From the NCBI GenBank assembly GCA_963702425.1, contig CAVPCQ010000016.1, positions 128,001 to 192,000 of the forward strand: a stretch of DNA of 64,000 nucleotides, read 5' to 3'. The DNA comes from an uncultured Acidobacteriota bacterium (GTDB taxonomy: Bacteria > Acidobacteriota > Polarisedimenticolia > J045). A program made the translations under genes and the position numbers. Every line of letters starts with the position of its first letter. Position 1 is the stretch's first letter. Of the stretch, positions 942 through 63,988 are shown one piece after another. The notes beneath the pieces are model-generated. The model was not told the origin of the DNA and ran no database searches. It saw nothing but the letters and a program-made list of their open reading frames with translations.

Positions 942-1011
942 GACGCCTCCCACCGGGCCCGCGCAGGAGGAAGACGGCTCGCAGGGATCGAGGGGATCGC
1001 GGCGGCACGTC

Positions 1012-1090
1012 CCGTTTCCCTACGCTGGTATGACCCAGATCAGGTTCTAGGGTGTTCTCTCAGCCCGGTTGTCTCCCGGGCACCCCTAAC
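1012..1090 (-). promoter_or_regulatory. TPP (thi-box) riboswitch
   Basis: Minus strand reads AGGGGTGC...GGCTGAGA...ACCCTAGAACCTGATCTGGGTCATACCAGCGTAGGGAA, the canonical TPP aptamer consensus. Confidence 0.95.
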
Positions 1091-1164
1091 GGAACGGCTC
1101 GACCTTACGCCTCCGGCGCGGGGCGGGCAAGCGCCGACCGGCCGGGAGGCGCCCCGCTGGCGGC

Positions 1165-11981: not shown

Positions 11982-16856
<4,875 letters not shown>

Positions 16857-16937
16857 GACGGTTCTGCAGTCGGAGCGGTCCGGCCGCCACTCAGCCAACT
16901 CGTTGGCCAAGAGCCGCTTGGGTCGATCGGCACAGCG

Positions 16938-16953
16938 CGGCACGCGAGTTGCT
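16938..16953 (+). promoter_or_regulatory. Sigma-54 (-24/-12) promoter
   Basis: CGGCACGCGAGTTGCT matches (T/C)GGCAC-N5-TTGC(A/T) with exact GG-N10-GC spacing. Confidence 0.75.
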
Positions 16954-16963
16954 CTACCCGCTC

Positions 16964-17165
16964 TCACCTCCCGGCCGCGGAACGGGGATCGAAAGGCCCG
17001 GACCGCTGCCGACCCCACAACGGCCCTCCGGGGCCGGAACGCTCGCCGGTCCCAGTCAGTCCGACAGGGCTCGACGCACCCAGGGGACCGGCGAAACCCC
17101 GCCGCGGGGCGGGCCGTGCGATCCGCCGCCATCCTGTGCCGGACGCACGGCCGCCCCGCCCTTTT
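16964..17165 (+). ncRNA. Candidate sigma-54-dependent structured small RNA
   Basis: Begins at the predicted +1 of the promoter; no ATG/TTG and no GTG before the terminal hairpin; stems CGGCCC/GGGCCG and CGCCGGTCCC/GGGACCGGCG; ends in hairpin plus TTTT. Confidence 0.4.
17106..17165 (+). terminator. Intrinsic terminator-like hairpin (may also serve the convergent gene)
   Basis: GGGGCGGGCCGTGCG ... CGCACGGCCGCCCC followed by GCCCTTTT. Confidence 0.55.
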
Positions 17166-17205
17166 GTCGACGGACGATGCCGGACCGGCAGCGCCGGCGC
17201 GCCCC

Positions 17206-18483
17206 TCAGCCGTGCGCTCGCCCCAGCACGAGCGCACGCAGTTCCCGCGCCTCCGCCACGCCGTTCCCGCCTGCGGTCCGCCGCCCGTCGGCGCGCGCCG
17301 CCTCCCACCCGGGAACGAGCGCCGCGTCGAAGCGCGGCTCGAAGCGGCGCGCCAGTTCGACCGCCAGCGCCGCACGCGTCGCCGGCGCGCGCCCCGGCGC
17401 GAGCACACCCGCGAGGAAGAGCGCCCCCTGCGCCAGCGCGGCCATCAGGTTCAGCCGCGCGAGGAAGATCGCGTTGGCCTCCGGAACGAAGGTCGCGCCG
17501 CGCGCCTCGGCCGCCGCAAGCGCTCCGTCCACGGGGGTCGCGAGGGCCCGCGTGCCGGCCAGCCAACGGACGAACCGGGCGCGCTCGTGGGGCCCGAAGA
17601 CAACCGGGAAGAGGTCCGCCAACCAGCGTGCGCGTCCCGCGCGCGTGCCTCGCGGGTCGATCCCGACCCCCTGTGCCAGCGCGTCGATCAGGCCGTGCAC
17701 GAACAGCGGCACGTCCAGGTCGGGAGCCGGCGAATCCTCGCGCGCCCAGCGCCGCACGACGCGCGAGAACGCGGGGACGCGGCACCCCGGCGCGGCGCGC
17801 CGGCGCTCCAGGGTCCCCTTCCCCGCGCGCCGCCAGCCCGTGCCGGCCGCGTCGCCGTCGAGGTCGTGAAAGACGCGGACCAGCGCCTCGCCGCCGATTC
17901 CGTGCCGCGAGAGAGCGTGCGGCAGGTGCGGGGCGGCGAGGTGCGCTTCGCCGAAGACGACGATCACCGTACCCTGCGGTCCGAGCGTCTCGGCCAGCGC
18001 GGCGATCCGCTCGGCGGCGACGCGGTCGCGGCGCGCCAGGCTCTCGACCCCGCCGCGCGGCGGCAGGTCGAGCCCGAGCGCCGGCACGCCGTGCGCGCGG
18101 GCGCACCGCAGCAGCCGCGCCGATGCGGCCCACGGATAGCCCCATTCCTCTTCGTAACGAATCAGCCGCCGCAGTTCGGCCGCGCCGACGCCGCCGGAGA
18201 GGTAGCGATCGAGCGCGGCCTGGTCGCGCGCGTGGACCATCTCGAGTCCGAGCGCGAGCGGCCGCGCCGCGAGCCGGTGGACCAGCGCGACCGCGGTCTC
18301 GAGCGCCGAGGGGAGCGCGTGAAACTCGCCGAGCAGCACGACCCGCGCGCGGCGCACGGTCGCCAGCGCCTCGGCCGCGCGGCCGCGCGCGAATCGCAGG
18401 CCGCGGACTTCGCGGTGGAAGCGGCGGACGTAGGGGGATCCGGCGACCGGATCGAGGTCGACGGGCAGGTCGGAGGCGCTCAG
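17206..18483 (-). CDS. ChaN / haem-cofactor-binding-like family protein (start uncertain)
   Basis: [49 protein letters not shown]; only a CTG overlapping the tatA stop is available as a natural start. Confidence 0.6.
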
Positions 18484-18677
18484 CGCGGGCTGTCCTTGCG
18501 TGAATCGTCGGCGGGTCCGTTGGTGGAGTCGCCCGAGGCCCCGTCCTTCATCGAGTTGCGGAAGTTCTTGATCCCCTCCCCGAGGCCGCGTCCCAACGCC
18601 GGGAGCTTCGACACGCCGAAGAGCAGGACGACGATCACGAGAATCAGCAGCAGTTCGGGGAAGCCGAGATTGGGCAT
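18480..18677 (-). CDS. tatA: Twin-arginine translocase TatA/E subunit
   Basis: [40 protein letters not shown]; GAGGAG RBS. Confidence 0.95.
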
Positions 18678-18736
18678 GAGCCGTCTCCTCCCTTTCATTA
18701 TGGGGCAAGCGGGGTGGATCCGCCCTGCCGCTCGGC

Positions 18737-20674
18737 TCAGCGCGGGGGCCGGACCTTCCGCTCGTTGCCGATCCGCTGGGTCACGGCCTCGGCATCGAGC
18801 TTCTCGAGCAGTGGAATGGCGTACTTCCGGCTGATCCCGAACAGCTCCTTGAAGGTCGCGACGTCGATCGTCGCGCGGCCGGCCGCCGCTTCGTCACGCA
18901 GGGTCCGCACCACCCGCTCCCACGCGCCGCCGCCGAGCCAGAGGCTCTCCTTGAGCTTGATCGCCTCGCCCCGGCGGGCGGCGAAGGCGAGCAACTGCCG
19001 CGCAGCGGGGCCGCCGCCGAGCCGGGCCAGGAGATCGGCCTCCGGCAGCGCCTCGAAGGCGGCCGCATCCAGCGCGCTCTTGACCGAGGCAAGCCGCTCG
19101 GCCTGCTCCCCTTCGGGCACGGCCCGGTGGCTCGCGAGGCGGACCGCGTCGGGTCGCACCGCAATCGCGCCGCGGGCCTCGAGCCGCGCCAGCAGGCCGC
19201 GAAACTGCTCGGCGCTCCACCCCGGCGCCATGGCGCCGCGCAGCCGCTCGGGAGCCGGGCCGTCCTCGAGCGGCCGGTCGGCATGAGCCCGGGCCAGTTC
19301 CTCGGTGATCCGCGAGAAGAGCGTCTCGCGCGCCGGCACCGAGACGACCCGGTCCCCCTCGAGCAGCACCACCCGAGCCGCCGCGGCCGGGGCCTGCTCC
19401 AGCTCCGCCGCAGCCGCCCGGGCCGCCGCGCGGGTCAGCCCCAGGCGCACCGCGCGCTCGGCCAGATCGACGCCCTCGGGGCCGGCATCGTGCGTGGCGC
19501 GCGCCAGCCGCCCGGCCGGTGTGGCGCGCGCCAGTTCCTCCGTGCGCTGCGGCCACGCCGGATCGTCCCGCCGCCGACGTGGCGGATCGAGGTCGACCAC
19601 GATCCCGCCGCCCAGCGTCGTCACCGGGCTGTAACGGCGCAGGATGAAGCGATCGCCGGGGAGGGCGGCGAGCGGCGCTTCCAGGCGGATCTGCGCTGCG
19701 CCGCGCGCCCCCGGCGCGAGCGGCCGTTCGCGCGGCAACCGCAGGCGCCCCAGCACCTCGGCCGTCCCGTGGTGCACCCGCACGCGCTGCTCGTCCTCCA
19801 GCGGCGCGGGCGCGTCCGCGGTCACCTCGACCAGTGCGTCGAAGACCAGGGTGACCGGCCCGAGCCCGGGCGGAACCAGCACCATCCCGCGCTGGAGCCG
19901 CTCGCGGTCGACCCCCTGGAGGTTCACCGCGACCCGCCGCTGCGGGCCGGCGACCTCGACCGCCGCGCCGTGGACTTGCAGCCCGCGGATCTTCCCGGTC
20001 GGGCCGCCGGGCACCGCTTCGAGCGGTTCGCCGACACTCAGCGCGGCCCCCTGCAGCGTCCCGGTGACGATCGTGCCGAAGCCGCGCGCGGCGAAGACGC
20101 GATCGACCGGGAGTCGCGCCCACGGCCCCGCGGCGCGCTCGGGGAGCCGCGCGGCGACGGCCACGAGCGCCTCGCGCAGCGCGTCGAGCCCGCGGCCGGT
20201 GATGCCGCTCACCGGGATCACCGGGGCCCCCTCGAGGAAGCTCCCCGCCACCAGCTCGCGGACCTCCTCCGCGACCAGCTCGAGCATCCCCTCCTCGACC
20301 AGGTCGCTGCGCGTGATCGCCACCAGTCCCCCCGGGATCCCGAGCAGCCGGCAGATCGCGAGGTGCTCCCTCGTCTGCGGCATCACCGACTCGTCGGCGG
20401 CCACGACGAGCAGCACGAGATCGATCCCGGTCGCGCCCGCGAGCATGTTGTGCACGAAGCGCTCGTGCCCCGGCACGTCGACGAACGAGACCACGACCTC
20501 GCCGATCCGCGCCGGCGCGAAACCGAGATCGATCGTGATCCCGCGCTCCTTCTCCTCCGGCAGGCGGTCGGGATCGATCCCCGTCAGCGCGCGGACGAGC
20601 GTCGACTTGCCGTGATCGATGTGACCGGCGGTGCCGACGACGACGTGGCGCAGGGTTTCGGTGGCGTCGCTCAC
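18737..20674 (-). CDS. selB: Selenocysteine-specific elongation factor
   Basis: [38 protein letters not shown]-terminal winged helix [15 protein letters not shown]. Confidence 0.95.
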
Positions 20675-20685
20675 GGCCGGAGGGC

Positions 20686-22740
20686 TCAGTGGTGCGTCGG
20701 CCCGCTGGGGCGGCGTCCGGCGCGCCACGCCGCGCGCGGCTCGGGACGCTCCTCCGACAGCGGGAAGGGCGGCGCCGTAGCCGCGAGCTCCTTCACCAGC
20801 CGGAGCACCTCCGCGACGCGGAACGGCTTGGCGATCACCGGCCGCGGCGCGGGCCCTTCCAGCTCCGCCCGCCGTGGGTCGCCGGTGCTGAAGAGCACGC
20901 GATCGGCGAGGTGCGGCGCGCGGCGGCGCAGCTGCTCGTAAAGCTCGAGCCCGGACAGCCGCGGCATGCGCAGATCGGAGACGATCACGTCGGCCCCACG
21001 CTCGAGCAGCCAGGCGAGCGCCGCCTCGGGGTCCTCCATCGCCCGCGCCTGGGCGCCGGCCTCGCGCAGCGCGGCGACGAGCACGGCGCCGACCGCGCTC
21101 TCGTCGTCGACGACCAGCACCGAGAGGCCGTCGAGCCGCGGCAGCAGCGGCGGGACCGTGTCGGGCGGCTCCTCGAGCGCCCGCCGCACGAGCCCCGGCG
21201 CGCCGGCCGGCAGGCGGACGCCGGCCACCGGCCGGTCGACCGATTGCGGCAGCGTCAGGATGAAGCGCGCGCCGCGCCCCGGCGCGGAGTCGACGTCGAG
21301 CGTGCCGCCGTGCTCAGCCACCGCGCCGCAGACGACTGCGAGCCCGAGACCGGTCCCCTTCCCCTCCGGCTTGGTCGTGAAGAACGGGTCGAAGATCCGG
21401 CCCATGTGCTCGGGCGCGATCCCGGGCCCGGTGTCGCCGACGACCAGCCGGGCGCCGCCCGGGGCGGGACCGATCTCGATCTCGATCTCGCGCCGGCCCG
21501 GATGCCCCTCGAGCGCGTGCAGCGCATTGGTCAGCAGGTTGAGCAGCACCTGGAGGATCTCGTCCGGCGCGACCTCGACCGCGGGCGTGTCCGGATCGAC
21601 GTGCAGCACCGCCTCGACGTGCTCCGTGCGCAGGGTCGCCGCCATCGTGGACAGCGCGCGATCGGCGATCCCCGCCAGCGCCACCGGCGAACGCCGGTGC
21701 CCGCCGGGACGCGCGACGCTCATCAGCTCCGACACCAGCCGGTGGCAGCGCTGCGCCTCCTCCTCGATGATCGAGAGCCACGCCCCGCGCTCCACCGACT
21801 CGGGGTCGCGCCGCAGGAGCTGCGCGAAGCCGATCACGGTCGTCAGCGGGTTGTTGATCTCGTGCGCCAGGTTGGACGCCAGCTGCCCGGCCGTCGAGAG
21901 CCGCTCGGCCCGCGCCAGCAGCGACTGCCGCGCCCGCTCGTCGGTCACGTCGCCGATCAGCAGCACGACTCCCCGCTCGTCCGCGCCGGGAAGCGCCGCG
22001 CCCGGTACGGCGCGGACGGCGAGCGTACGGCCGTCGCCGGGCAGGAGCAGCTCGGCCGACGCGCGTCCTCGCGCTCGAACCTCCAGCAGGAGTGGCGCGA
22101 GCGGCAGCGACGCGATGTGCGCCAGCGGGGCCCCCTCCACCGGCCCGGCCCCGAGCGGGGCCAGCAGCTCCGCAGCGTGCCTGTTCGAGAGCCGCACGCA
22201 CCCGTCGGGATCGAGCAGGACGAGTCCCTCGGGAATCCCCTCGATCACGCTTTCCAGCCGCTCGAACTGCTCGCGGCCCGGGGCCGCCCGGCCCGGCCGC
22301 CGTCCGAGCCCGTCGAGCGCACCCGCCAGCAGTTCTGCCGGCTCGGCGAGTGCGACCAGGTCGTCGATCACGAAGGGGACCTCGGCCCGCGCGAGCACCA
22401 GGACCCCGGCCCCCGACGTCGACAGCGGCAGGACGAGCTGCTCGCGCTGCCCGAGCGACCAGAGCAGGTCGTCCTTCGCGTCGCTCCGCCCGTCGGCCAG
22501 CGAGAGGGCGACGGGCTCGCGCCGGAGCGGCCCCAGCGGAACCGGCGGCGCGGCGAGCGGGACCCACTGCGTCTGATGGCGCCGGCGCACCACCTCGAGC
22601 CGCGCTGCCGACGGATCGCTCAGCGCCACCAGGTCGGCGGCCGGGTCGCAGGCCGCACACCACGCCGCGAAGACCTCCTCGCGGCCGTCGGCGGCGAAGA
22701 GTGCGAGCGCGAGGTCGGCGATCGTCGAGAAACGCCCCAT
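20686..22740 (-). CDS. Hybrid sensor histidine kinase (PAS - HisKA - HATPase - receiver)
   Basis: LAHEINNPL, QVLLNLLTNA, DTGPGI, FDPFFTTK..GKGTGLGL, VLVVDDE, SDLRMP. Confidence 0.9.
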   Translation of the reverse strand: MGRFSTIADLALALFAADGREEVFAAWCAACDPAADLVALSDPSAARLEVVRRRHQTQWVPLAAPPVPLGPLRREPVALSLADGRSDAKDDLLWSLGQREQLVLPLSTSGAGVLVLARAEVPFVIDDLVALAEPAELLAGALDGLGRRPGRAAPGREQFERLESVIEGIPEGLVLLDPDGCVRLSNRHAAELLAPLGAGPVEGAPLAHIASLPLAPLLLEVRARGRASAELLLPGDGRTLAVRAVPGAALPGADERGVVLLIGDVTDERARQSLLARAERLSTAGQLASNLAHEINNPLTTVIGFAQLLRRDPESVERGAWLSIIEEEAQRCHRLVSELMSVARPGGHRRSPVALAGIADRALSTMAATLRTEHVEAVLHVDPDTPAVEVAPDEILQVLLNLLTNALHALEGHPGRREIEIEIGPAPGGARLVVGDTGPGIAPEHMGRIFDPFFTTKPEGKGTGLGLAVVCGAVAEHGGTLDVDSAPGRGARFILTLPQSVDRPVAGVRLPAGAPGLVRRALEEPPDTVPPLLPRLDGLSVLVVDDESAVGAVLVAALREAGAQARAMEDPEAALAWLLERGADVIVSDLRMPRLSGLELYEQLRRRAPHLADRVLFSTGDPRRAELEGPAPRPVIAKPFRVAEVLRLVKELAATAPPFPLSEERPEPRAAWRAGRRPSGPTHH

Positions 22741-42600: not shown

Positions 42601-44943
42601 AGCTGGCGCTCGAGAACCTCGGCCTCGTGCAGCTCCGGCTCGGGCGCTACGAGGCGGCGCTGGCGACCGGCCGCCGGCTGCTCGACGAGGCGACCCGCTT
42701 CGACCGCCGGGCCTACCGCGTCTCCGGGCTGCTGATCGCCGGCGAGGCGCTGTTCTGGACCGACGAGCGCGACGCCGCGCGCGAGCACGACCGGCTCGCG
42801 CTCTCGCTGGCCGAGGCGCTGGGCGAAGCAGCGCAGCTTCAGTTCGCACGGCTCGCCGTCGCGCGCGACCGGCGCGCCGACCGCGCCCTCGACGCCGCGC
42901 GCGAGGCAGCCGACGCCGCGCTGGCCGACTCCGAGCGCACCGGAAACCTCAGGATCCGCGCACTGGCGGCGCTCGAGCGGGCACGGATCGCGCTCGACGA
43001 AGAGGACGCCCCGGGCGCGCTGGCCTGGCTCGACCGGGCCGAAGTCGCGCTGGCGGTTCCGCGCGAGGACGGCCCGGCCACGCGTGCCGCGCTGCTCTAC
43101 GAGCGCGCCCGCGCGCGCCGACTGGCGCGCCAGCCGGACCTGGCGCGGGCCGACGCCGAGGAGGCGATCGGCCTGGCGCGGCGCTCCGGGATGACCGAGC
43201 TGGAACTGCGCGCGCTGGCCGTGCTGGCCGGTCTGTTCGCCGAGCGCGGCGACCAGCCGGCGGCGGACGAGGCGCTGGCCCACGCGGTGGCGCTGGCCGA
43301 CGCGCTGGCCGGCGGGATCGCCGACCCGGCGCGGCGCGCGCGCTTCCTCGGCCGGCCCGACCTGCTCGCCCTGCGCGACGCGGCGGTCCGCCGGGGCGCG
43401 CTGCAGCCCGCCGGACGCGCCGCCGCCCCGGCCGGCCGGGCACGCGGCCTCGACCCGCTGGCCGCGCTCTACGAAGTCGCGCAAGCGGTGGCCGACGAGG
43501 GCGACCTCGACCCGCTCTTCCGCCGGATCGTGGCCCTCGCGGTCGAGCAGGCGGGCGCGGAGCGCGGCCTGCTGCTGCTGCGCCGCGCGGACGGCGGCGC
43601 GCTGGAGCCGGTCGCGGCCGAGGGGGTGGAGGACCGGACCGCGCACGACGCGGTGCAGATCTCGAAGAGCGTGCTGGCCCGCGCCGACGAGGGGCACGCG
43701 ATCCTGGCCCGTGACGCGCGCTCGCATCCCGACCTGTCGGAAGCGCAGTCGGTGGCGCTGTTCGACATCCGCTCGGTGATGTGCGTTCCGCTGCGCCTCG
43801 GGCGCGAAGTGCTGGGCACGCTGTACGTCGACACCCGCGGCGCGCACGCCGCGTTCTCGGAAGCCGATCTGCGCTTTCTCGAGGCGCTGGCCGCGCAGGC
43901 GGCGGTCGCGCTGGGCTACGGGCGGCTGGTCGGCCGGTTGTCGCGCGAGCGCGAGGCGCTACGCCAGGCAGCCGACGCGGCGCGCGGTTTCGGCGAGCTG
44001 ATCGGCCGCTCGGCGGCGATGCGCCGCGTCTTCGAGACCCTGGCCAAGGTCGCGCCGACCTCGCTGCCGGTGATCGTCACCGGGGAGTCGGGGACCGGCA
44101 AGGAGCTGGTCGCACGCGCGCTGCACGAGTCCTCTCCGCGTCGCGCCCACCCGTTCCTGACCGAGAACTGCGCGACGATTCCTGAGACGCTGCTGGAGAG
44201 CGTCCTGTTCGGCCACGCGCGCGGCGCGTTCACCGGGGCGGACGCACCGCGCCGTGGCCTGTTCGAGCTGGCGGACGGCGGAACCCTGGTGCTGGACGAG
44301 ATCGGCGACATGAGCCCGGGGCTGCAGGCCAAGCTGCTGCGCGTGCTGCAGGACCGCGCCTTCCGGCCGCTCGGCAGCGAGCGGCTGGTGCGCGCCGACG
44401 TGCGGGTCGTCGGCGCGACCCACCGCGATCTCGAGTCGCTGATGCGGGACGGCGTTTTCCGGCAGGACCTCTACTTCCGGCTCAACGGAATCACGATCGA
44501 GATCCCGCCGCTGCGCGAGCGCCGCGAGGACGTCCCGCTGCTGGCGCATCACTTCCTGGAACGCGAGGCCCGGGCGGCCGGCCTTCCCGCTCCTCCCACG
44601 CTGGAGCCGTCGGCCCTTCGCGCGCTGGCCGCGCTCGACTGGCCGGGCAACGTGCGCCAGCTCGAGCACACGATGCGGCGTCTCCTGATCTTCGCCGAGG
44701 GGGGCCGGATCACGCGCGAGACCCTGGCCGCGGACCCGGAGCTGGCGGCGGCCGCAGGGCTGAAGGCGGGGGCGGCGGGCGGAGCGAGGGCGGCCGCGGG
44801 ATCCGCGCCGGTGCCCCCGATCCGAGCAGGCGGTCCGGGAGGCGCTCGCCCGCACGGGTGGAAACCGCAAGGAGGCGGCGCGGACGCTGGGCCTGTCGCG
44901 CGCGACCTTCTACCGCCGGCTGGGGGAGCTGGGGATCCGCTGA
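39675..44943 (+). CDS. Giant sigma-54 activator 2: Fis HTH - Ser/Thr kinase - STAND-like ATPase - TPR-like repeats - GAF - AAA+ - Fis HTH (frameshift near 44820)
   Basis: N-terminal GGNRAEAARALGVGRATLYRW; LGSGGQATV, HRDLKSEN, DLG, APE; GEGGAGKSRL, LAVEDLH; SVMCVPL..LYVDTR; GESGTGKE, GAFTGA, WPGNVRQLE; an alternative frame from ~44824 gives EQAVREALARTGGNRKEAARTLGLSRATFYRRLGELGIR with TGA at 44941-44943. Confidence 0.88.
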
Positions 44944-63502: not shown

Positions 63503-63587
63503 TGGTGCGAAAGGGGGGATTCGAACCCCCACGGCCGAAGCCACGAGATCCTAAGTCTCGCGCGTCTACCAGTTCCGCCACTTTCGC
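63503..63587 (-). tRNA. tRNA-Leu (anticodon TAG)
   Basis: GCGAAAGTGGCGGAACTGGTAGACGCGCGAGACT-TAG-GATCTCG...GTTCGAATCC...CGCACCA; long variable arm. Confidence 0.95.
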
Positions 63588-63728
63588 ACGGATCGGGGCG
63601 GCGGACGAACCATGGTCTGGATGATAAGGCGAAAGGCGTGACGCGGCGCCCGGGGATCCGGGCGCGGCGCCGGGCGCGTGGTTCGGCAGGCGCGTCGAAC
63701 CTGGCGCGCGCAGCCGTGAGAAGGGTGT

Positions 63729-63804
63729 TGGTGAGCCGCCAGGGACTTGAACCCCGAACCCGCAGATTAAGAGTCTGCTGCTCTGCCAGTTGAGCTAGCG
63801 GCCC
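63729..63804 (-). tRNA. tRNA-Lys (anticodon CTT)
   Basis: GGGCCGCTAGCTCAACTGGCAGAGCAGCAGACT-CTT-AATCTGC...GTTCAAGTCC...CACCA. Confidence 0.95.
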
Positions 63805-63911
63805 ACCCGAGCGTTGCTGAGGCCGGAATCGGTCTCCCCTCCGGCGAGCGGGGGATTATACGCGACCAACCCCCGACGGCAACCAACTATGGTTCCACGT
63901 CGCGGGAAGAT

Positions 63912-63988
63912 TGGGGTGGGCGACGGGGCTCGAACCCGTGACAACCAGATCCACAGTCTGGGGCTCTACCAACTGAGCTACGCCCACC
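63912..63988 (-). tRNA. tRNA-His (anticodon GTG)
   Basis: G-1 present, CCAGACT-GTG-GATCTGG anticodon arm, C73 discriminator, encoded CCA. Confidence 0.95.

Follow-up and report, generated by a model that had tools for sequence, protein, structure and literature searches.

A predicted sigma-54-dependent non-coding RNA gene behind the gene of a giant enhancer-binding protein in an uncultured Acidobacteriota bacterium

Introduction

What does a giant sigma-54 activator control when the promoter directly behind its own gene is followed by a convergent gene? This question is raised by a locus in the window analyzed here, that is, the whole 64,000-nucleotide stretch of DNA from an uncultured Acidobacteriota bacterium, in which an activator gene ends within a palindrome and is followed by a sigma-54 promoter and approximately 200 nucleotides that close with a hairpin. 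An earlier note on this DNA had interpreted the arrangement as a sigma-54-dependent non-coding RNA under the control of the adjacent activator. The comparative evidence presented below, namely sequence conservation, internal indels, the completeness of the predicted activator, and recurrence of the layout at 16 of 16 orthologous loci, supports this interpretation, and we consider it likely that the block is a stand-alone non-coding RNA gene of approximately 202 nt, which would be transcribed from its own sigma-54 promoter and switched on by the neighboring giant activator within the circuit proposed here. Hardly any work exists on small RNAs of Acidobacteriota, and a full-text literature search that combined sigma-54, small RNA, and Acidobacteria found nothing related.

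Results and discussion

The activator gene and its genomic setting

The giant sigma-54 activator of 1624 amino acids is encoded at positions 11982–16856 on the plus strand. Pfam analysis of its translation identified the domains Pkinase (Ser/Thr kinase), GAF, Sigma54_activat (AAA+), and HTH_8, together with weak AAA_16/TPR matches in the long middle region, and the motifs GESGSGKE (Walker A), GAFTGA, and LFLDEIGDM (Walker B) are present. Judged by its Walker A, GAFTGA, and Walker B motifs and its HTH_8 domain, the predicted protein is a complete enhancer-binding protein. Its orthologues share 84–92% identity within the genus and 44–52% in the family, and a protein search of genomes yielded full-length orthologues in 12 further family genomes beyond the genus. 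With the C-terminal third of the activator, searches for related loci returned only generic NtrC-type matches, and with its middle region they returned none. The genome of 5.1 Mb (71% GC) encodes rpoN (sigma-54), hfq, and csrA, as well as four HU/IHF-family genes.

The next gene had been described as convergent, and it lies indeed on the minus strand at positions 17206–18708, where Pfam and the codon-GC signature identify a ChaN/haem-binding-like gene (Cofac_haem_bdg, PF04187); it is no target of the sigma-54 promoter. Several other features were recorded in the window. The gene for the selenocysteine elongation factor SelB is located two genes away (18737–20728, minus strand), and the named records closest to it agree with a placement in Acidobacteriota; a TPP riboswitch (1000–1097, minus strand, 70.6 bits) and three tRNA genes (63506–63987, minus strand) reach their Rfam gathering scores. 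A second large sigma-54 activator, a paralogue that the earlier note had called activator 2, is found at approximately 42609–44807 on the plus strand (open frame of 1885 amino acids) and is 44% identical to the first activator over residues 861–1569 of the latter.

The palindrome and the sigma-54 promoter

The perfect palindrome CGTCTC-N5-GAGACG reported earlier on the stop codon of the activator gene was read directly at positions 16844–16860, with its arms at 16844–16849 and 16855–16860, N5 at 16850–16854, and the stop codon TGA (16854–16856) inside it. Both arms and a flanking G are invariant in all five genomes of the genus, and one spacer base is variable. Only two perfect copies occur in the 5.1-Mb genome, each located 93–95 nt upstream of a sigma-54 promoter. 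Among the 12 relaxed palindromes of the genome, a sigma-54 promoter-like site within 70–150 nt was found for these two perfect copies only, compared with approximately 0.14 such cases expected according to an estimate from the genome's promoter density. From this conservation and co-occurrence, we infer that the palindrome is an upstream activating sequence to which the activator binds.

The sigma-54 promoter GGCAC-N5-TTGCT is located at positions 16939–16953 on the plus strand and reads cGGCAC-GCGAG-TTGCT. The GG of its -24 element (16939–40) and the GC of its -12 element (16951–52) predict a transcription start (+1) near position 16964. The near-consensus CGGCAC-N5-TTGCT of the earlier description was therefore recovered, and a lack of conservation in relatives, which would have spoken against the promoter, was not observed, as it is conserved in all five genus genomes. 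Across the genus, 13–14 of its 15 bases (87–93%) are identical, against 30–50% in the flanks. Matches to GGCAC-N5-TTGC[AT] number 23 in the whole genome.

The poorly conserved spacer between the palindrome and the promoter contains an IHF-like core, CAA-N4-TTG, which reads CAAC-TC-GTTG at positions 16896–16905. The IHF-like element that had been reported is thus present, although its coordinates were off by one base, and it is a doubtful candidate for a binding site, as the exact core occurs in only two of the five genus genomes and is replaced by TCAA-N4-(A/C)TG in the other three.

A conserved block with the character of a non-coding RNA gene

Downstream of the promoter, conservation, fold, and indels delimit a predicted non-coding RNA gene of approximately 202 nt on the plus strand, from +1 to the end of a T-run (16964–17165). 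The palindrome, the promoter, and the 202-nt block are all kept in the five genus genomes. In genus alignments, the block is 89–94% identical to the reference genome, compared with 35–46% for the spacer, 30–50% for the segment from -12 to +1, and 39–70% downstream of the T-run; the conservation profile begins at the -24/-12 elements, falls before +1, returns at the predicted +1, and ends at the T-run. The block also evolves more slowly than the synonymous sites of the activator gene, whose four-fold degenerate sites are 68–82% identical in the genus (91–96% at codon positions 1 and 2). When 61 related genomes were searched at the DNA level, strong matches (E ≤ 1e-74) were confined to the other four species of the genus; short matches of 20–49 nt in 18 non-genus genomes (E = 6e-4 to 9e-3), as well as a few further short matches elsewhere in the genus genomes, were treated as chance similarities of GC-rich DNA.

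Metagenomic contigs were consistent with these boundaries. Contigs from four metagenome runs, which may represent the same species as the genus genomes, gave the same conservation picture. Three diverged contigs from two runs align up to position 16861 and again from 16935 or 16964–16965, with a spacer of diverged sequence and about equal length in between, and two contigs turn into unrelated sequence directly after position 17165. Scans of metagenome contigs with two invariant stretches of the RNA yielded zero and then seven matches, none of which was homologous according to the covariance model of the genus RNA (model R1, see below).

The block ends in a predicted terminator (17104–17165, plus strand), a long GC-rich hairpin at approximately 17104–17159 in the predicted fold followed by TTTT at 17162–17165, which agrees with the terminal hairpin and TTTT reported earlier; the T-run extends to T5–T6 in relatives. 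A simple terminator scan gave no sites between the activator stop codon and the block, nor at the hairpin, whose long branched stem-loop falls outside the pattern of the tool. The plus strand of 16964–17170 folds with a z-score of -3.9, and none of 200 shuffled sequences folded as well, whereas the minus strand had a z-score of -1.5. The predicted fold comprises four stem-loop elements, the last of them being the terminator hairpin, and leaves the 5' end unpaired. Within the genus, one of 65 pairs is compensatory and shuffled alignments score equally, as five close sequences provide no power to detect covariation; one helix shows U-A, C-G, and U-G at a single pair, which is consistent with the fold and no more. 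The structural part of the earlier description, several GC stems, is therefore borne out by the stability of the plus-strand fold, but not by covariation of the stems inside the genus.

Two properties of the block argue that it is non-coding. The five genomes differ by three internal 1-nt indels, which shift any reading frame, and the 26 variable sites are split 10/10/6 over the codon positions in every frame, without codon periodicity. The statement that approximately 200 nt lack a start codon holds for ATG and TTG, which are absent from the block, but not for GTG, which occurs twice inside the terminator stem. No stop codon interrupts any of the three plus-strand frames within the block, one frame opens with a GTG at position 17136, and long open frames run on antisense through the convergent gene. 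A check for a hidden small open reading frame had been called for, and the indels, the distribution of substitutions, and the absence of ATG and TTG argue against one.

The Rfam covariance models (release 15) contain no family that reached its gathering score for the RNA block in a scan of the region and the window, and 701 nt around the block gave only chance-level matches (E = 2.3–9.3). Nine of the 12 non-genus orthologous loci described below (L120–L131; 64476 bases) gave nothing at E ≤ 0.1. The families in question include the Pxr, CrcZ, Qrr, and CsrB/Rsm types, if contained in the release.

These observations allow two other explanations of the block to be weighed. The activator mRNA could extend through the block, which would then be its 3' untranslated tail and terminator, or the convergent gene could share the block as a terminator. 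In either case, the promoter match would be fortuitous or of minor importance. Read-through from the activator gene is plausible, since no terminator was found between its stop codon and the block, and the terminator hairpin forms part of the block; read-through is also described for crcZ in an excerpt of PMC8871633. However, a tail of this kind leaves unaccounted for the conservation of the -24/-12 elements within a diverged spacer in five of five genus genomes and their presence at 16 of 16 family loci, the return of conservation exactly at the predicted +1, and the 140 nt upstream of the hairpin, which are as conserved as the hairpin itself. In addition, only the plus strand has a T-run behind the hairpin, and the minus strand shows no remarkable fold. 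We regard this explanation as very improbable. The promoter could alternatively drive a small protein-coding gene with an unusual start codon, an idea that draws on the three stop-free plus-strand frames, the GTG frame at 17136, and the ease with which small open reading frames are hidden in high-GC genomes. Against it stand the three frame-shifting indels, the lack of a third-position excess among substitutions (10/10/6), and the absence not only of ATG and TTG but also of any Shine-Dalgarno-like purine run before the two GTG codons, which lie in the terminator stem; moreover, the open frames extend in antisense across the convergent gene, which is what GC-rich shadow frames do. A small protein of this type appears hardly credible to us. 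The promoter, the palindrome, the RNA boundaries, the non-coding character, and the co-occurrence with the activator are supported by sequence comparison, and transcription of the block as a separate RNA is predicted.

The layout is maintained at orthologous loci of the family

We examined 16 orthologous loci (L116–L131), comprising the four genus loci with a whole activator gene and 12 other loci of the family. Each of the 16 has a sigma-54 promoter and, at the activator stop codon or behind it, a palindrome that fits N-R-TCTC-N5-GAGA-Y-N; each also carries a predicted RNA, although the RNAs differ by genus. The distances between palindrome and promoter fall into classes of 94–95, 106–107, and 115–119 nt, and these steps of approximately one helical turn suggest a need for the activator to be positioned on one side of the DNA helix. 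By its codon-GC signature, the gene that follows was judged convergent at 12 of 15 loci; two were ambiguous, and at one the contig was too short.

Two covariance models were used to compare the RNAs. Model R1, which represents the genus RNA, found one copy in each of the five genus genomes and no match in 18 other genomes of the family. Model R2, built from seven sequences of other genera, found one RNA per genome in 12 genomes, immediately behind the activator gene where contigs permitted this to be seen, and recovered the RNAs of five genomes outside its building set, in three genera. The six family genomes that lack an activator orthologue gave no match with R2, nor did 96 genomes from other families of the class in a stricter run, in which one weak family match was also lost. 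In the R2 alignment of 12 sequences, 95.5% of cells are paired, compared with 39–49% in slid controls, and 18 of 30 pairs covary, with none of 500 shuffles reaching the observed scores; such pairing scores are favored by the fitting of the alignment to the model. One of the covarying helices carries a C/U-rich loop (CUCCCUCC and variants).

Model R2 recognized the genus RNA in none of the five genus genomes and, at the four genus loci that include the activator, yielded nothing with E ≤ 10; with filters off, it produced local hairpin matches only (9.5 and 6.7 bits) in the window. As R2 misses the genus RNA, the covariation observed in the family supports the design of the locus rather than the fold predicted for this genus. 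The covariation analysis of regions downstream of orthologous activators, which had been suggested as a check, was accordingly positive for the other genera but does not extend to the genus RNA itself. Judged by locus comparison, the genus RNA is the positional equivalent of the family RNA, with sequence homology undemonstrated by R1 or R2. The two RNAs share their position after an orthologous activator gene, the palindrome type, the sigma-54 promoter, an exposed C/U-rich motif of the CCUCC type, and a terminal GC hairpin; they differ in that the C/U-rich motif lies in the loop of a covarying helix in the family RNA and at the 5' end in the genus RNA.

A second palindrome precedes the gene for a secreted protein

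The genome scan located the second perfect palindrome on genome contig C6 (349191–349768, corresponding to L146:2691–3272), where it lies 94 nt before a promoter GGCAC-N5-TTGCT. Behind this promoter come a strong ribosome-binding site and the gene for a protein of 144 amino acids. The protein has a signal-peptide-like start; it matched no Pfam family, and the Atlas search assigned it to unnamed Acidobacteriota clusters only. The ribosome-binding site is unusually strong (AGGAGGGAG). Homologues of this second site were compared at 20 loci, one per genome in 20 genomes, taken from 43 matches listed. A sigma-54 promoter was present at 19 of the 20 loci, and a palindrome was found 94–108 nt before the promoter at 11 of them, namely in all four genus genomes that have the gene and in seven genomes of three other genera. 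Conservation of this palindrome-promoter pair indicates that the activator very probably has at least two targets, the second promoter being driven by the same protein and the regulon thus comprising two or more outputs.

Comparison with known systems

The closest known parallels concern the layout of the locus. In Pseudomonadaceae, crcZ is described as a separate unit directly downstream of the CbrB gene with its own sigma-54 promoter activated by CbrB, and this synteny is kept throughout the group (PMC8871633, in excerpt); CrcY/CrcX are RNAs of the same type. The locus studied here shares with CrcZ/CbrB, as portrayed in the same excerpt, the position of an RNA gene with its own sigma-54 promoter directly behind the gene of an enhancer-binding protein (PMC8871633). 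It differs in that CbrB is a two-component response regulator, whereas the protein described here is a 1624-aa kinase/GAF one-component protein, and in that CrcZ titrates Hfq/Crc, whereas no repeated protein-binding motif was seen in the present RNA. In Myxococcus and relatives, according to part of the account in PMC5568312, pxr has a sigma-54 promoter and an enhancer site in front of it and lies between nla19, the gene of a sigma-54-dependent regulator, and the gene that follows; its RNA forms several stem-loops and has diverged rapidly from genus to genus. All these features, i.e., the location behind a regulator gene, the promoter and enhancer site, the several stem-loops, and the quick divergence between genera, recur here (PMC5568312, same part). 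Pxr is, however, only approximately 108 nt long, has three stem-loops, and belongs to Myxococcota, whereas the RNA of approximately 202 nt reported here belongs to Acidobacteriota and has no Rfam match. For DVU0653 and DVU0679 of Desulfovibrio vulgaris Hildenborough, the listed target in the relevant section of PMC4641369 is a sigma-54-dependent ncRNA downstream of the regulator's own gene. These two enhancer-binding proteins therefore resemble the present activator in that their target ncRNA is encoded behind their own gene (PMC4641369, that section), but they are two-component response regulators of another phylum, and the comparison is one of descriptions.

The design is thus already known from CrcZ/CbrB, Pxr/Nla19, and the Desulfovibrio ncRNAs, and the RNA gene itself is new. 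Qrr1, which is encoded beside luxO, is a further parallel of an RNA located next to its activator.

The locus offers a clean RNA gene that is not represented in Rfam, with a predicted promoter, enhancer site, and ends, and an enhancer motif specific enough for a two-member regulon to be read from the sequence alone. It also helps to identify what a kinase/GAF enhancer-binding protein of very large size controls. In a natural series of 17 genomes, the activator has retained its site and promoter, whereas the body of the RNA has been remodeled around a C/U-rich motif that is exposed; the series is useful for studies of small RNA evolution.

Proposed circuit and mode of action

In the circuit that we propose, the giant Ser/Thr-kinase/GAF activator would bind the palindrome on its own stop codon, approximately 95 nt before the -24 element, and would open the sigma-54 promoter at 16939–16953. 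The RNA would be transcribed from approximately position 16964 and end at the hairpin and T-run, and the activator would also drive the distant promoter of the 144-aa secreted protein. The 5' end of the RNA (CACCUCCC) may then pair with the ribosome-binding sites of target mRNAs and block their translation, possibly with the help of Hfq.

The candidate seed is the unpaired 5' end of the RNA, UCACCUCCCG (16964–16973, plus strand), which was delimited by conservation, fold, and 16S comparison. Eight of its bases match the 16S rRNA 3' tail of this genome exactly and hence resemble an anti-Shine-Dalgarno sequence, the match comprising the first bases of the RNA, UCACCUCC. Bases 2–11 are invariant in all five genus genomes, and the CCUCC near the 5' end has a predicted unpaired probability of 0.95–1.0. 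Motifs of the CCUCC type are also predicted to be unpaired (p = 0.88–1.0) in 12 of 15 family RNAs. CCUC is not enriched by count. An invariant, unpaired, 16S-like 5' end favors a base-pairing regulator that covers ribosome-binding sites, and we tentatively adopt the reading that the RNA acts in trans, pairing with mRNA ribosome-binding sites and blocking translation; this is plausible rather than probable. The idea is weak on specificity, as 8-mers complementary to the 5' end precede 26–99 plausible gene starts in the genome and the seed search consequently names no target.

The assembly contains two 16S rRNA 3' ends (C11:~281517 and C20:~87381) that differ slightly in the bases upstream and have distinct spacers downstream. 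As the contamination rating of the assembly is 5.85%, one of these ends may belong to another organism.

Pairing with mRNAs has to be weighed against two other modes of action. The sigma-54-driven RNA could serve as a protein sponge that sequesters CsrA/Rsm-type proteins or Hfq, like CsrB/RsmZ or CrcZ. Both csrA and hfq are present in the genome, and CrcZ, the best-known RNA with the same gene layout, is a sponge according to an excerpt of PMC8871633. The sponge idea also draws on the GGA motifs of the earlier note and on an extension with 19–22 GGA, compared with 8–10 expected, in RNAs of a sister genus. The several GGA motifs are indeed present in the reference RNA, but their number, six compared with 3.2 expected (p = 0.08), does not exceed expectation, and across the genus RNAs there are 4–6 against about 3.1 expected (p = 0.08–0.39). 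As GGA is not enriched, a reading of the genus RNA as a CsrA-binding RNA through these motifs is not supported. Furthermore, the RNA contains no array of repeated motifs, and its most conserved accessible element is C/U-rich, which to our knowledge is not a known CsrA motif. A sponge is thus an unlikely function of this RNA.

The other possibility is that the RNA does not act on a few specific targets at all but competes generally with ribosomes for strong ribosome-binding sites, including AGGAGGGAG of the co-induced secreted protein. The cytoplasmic activator would then run a minimal circuit with two outputs, the secreted protein and this RNA. Such competition would produce an incoherent feed-forward pulse and a broad shift in translation, and it would allow the RNA body to be remodeled freely between genera provided that the exposed CCUCC stays. 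We give this mode little credence, and pairing with ribosome-binding sites of selected mRNAs is retained as the tentatively preferred reading.

The equivalent RNAs of three genomes of one sister genus (L126, L127, and L131) are considerably longer than the genus RNA, at approximately 375–400 nt. Within approximately 230 nt after the promoter, they carry a purine-rich 5' extension with 19–22 GGA motifs against 8–10 expected (p < 0.001), and in this respect they resemble CsrA-binding RNAs.
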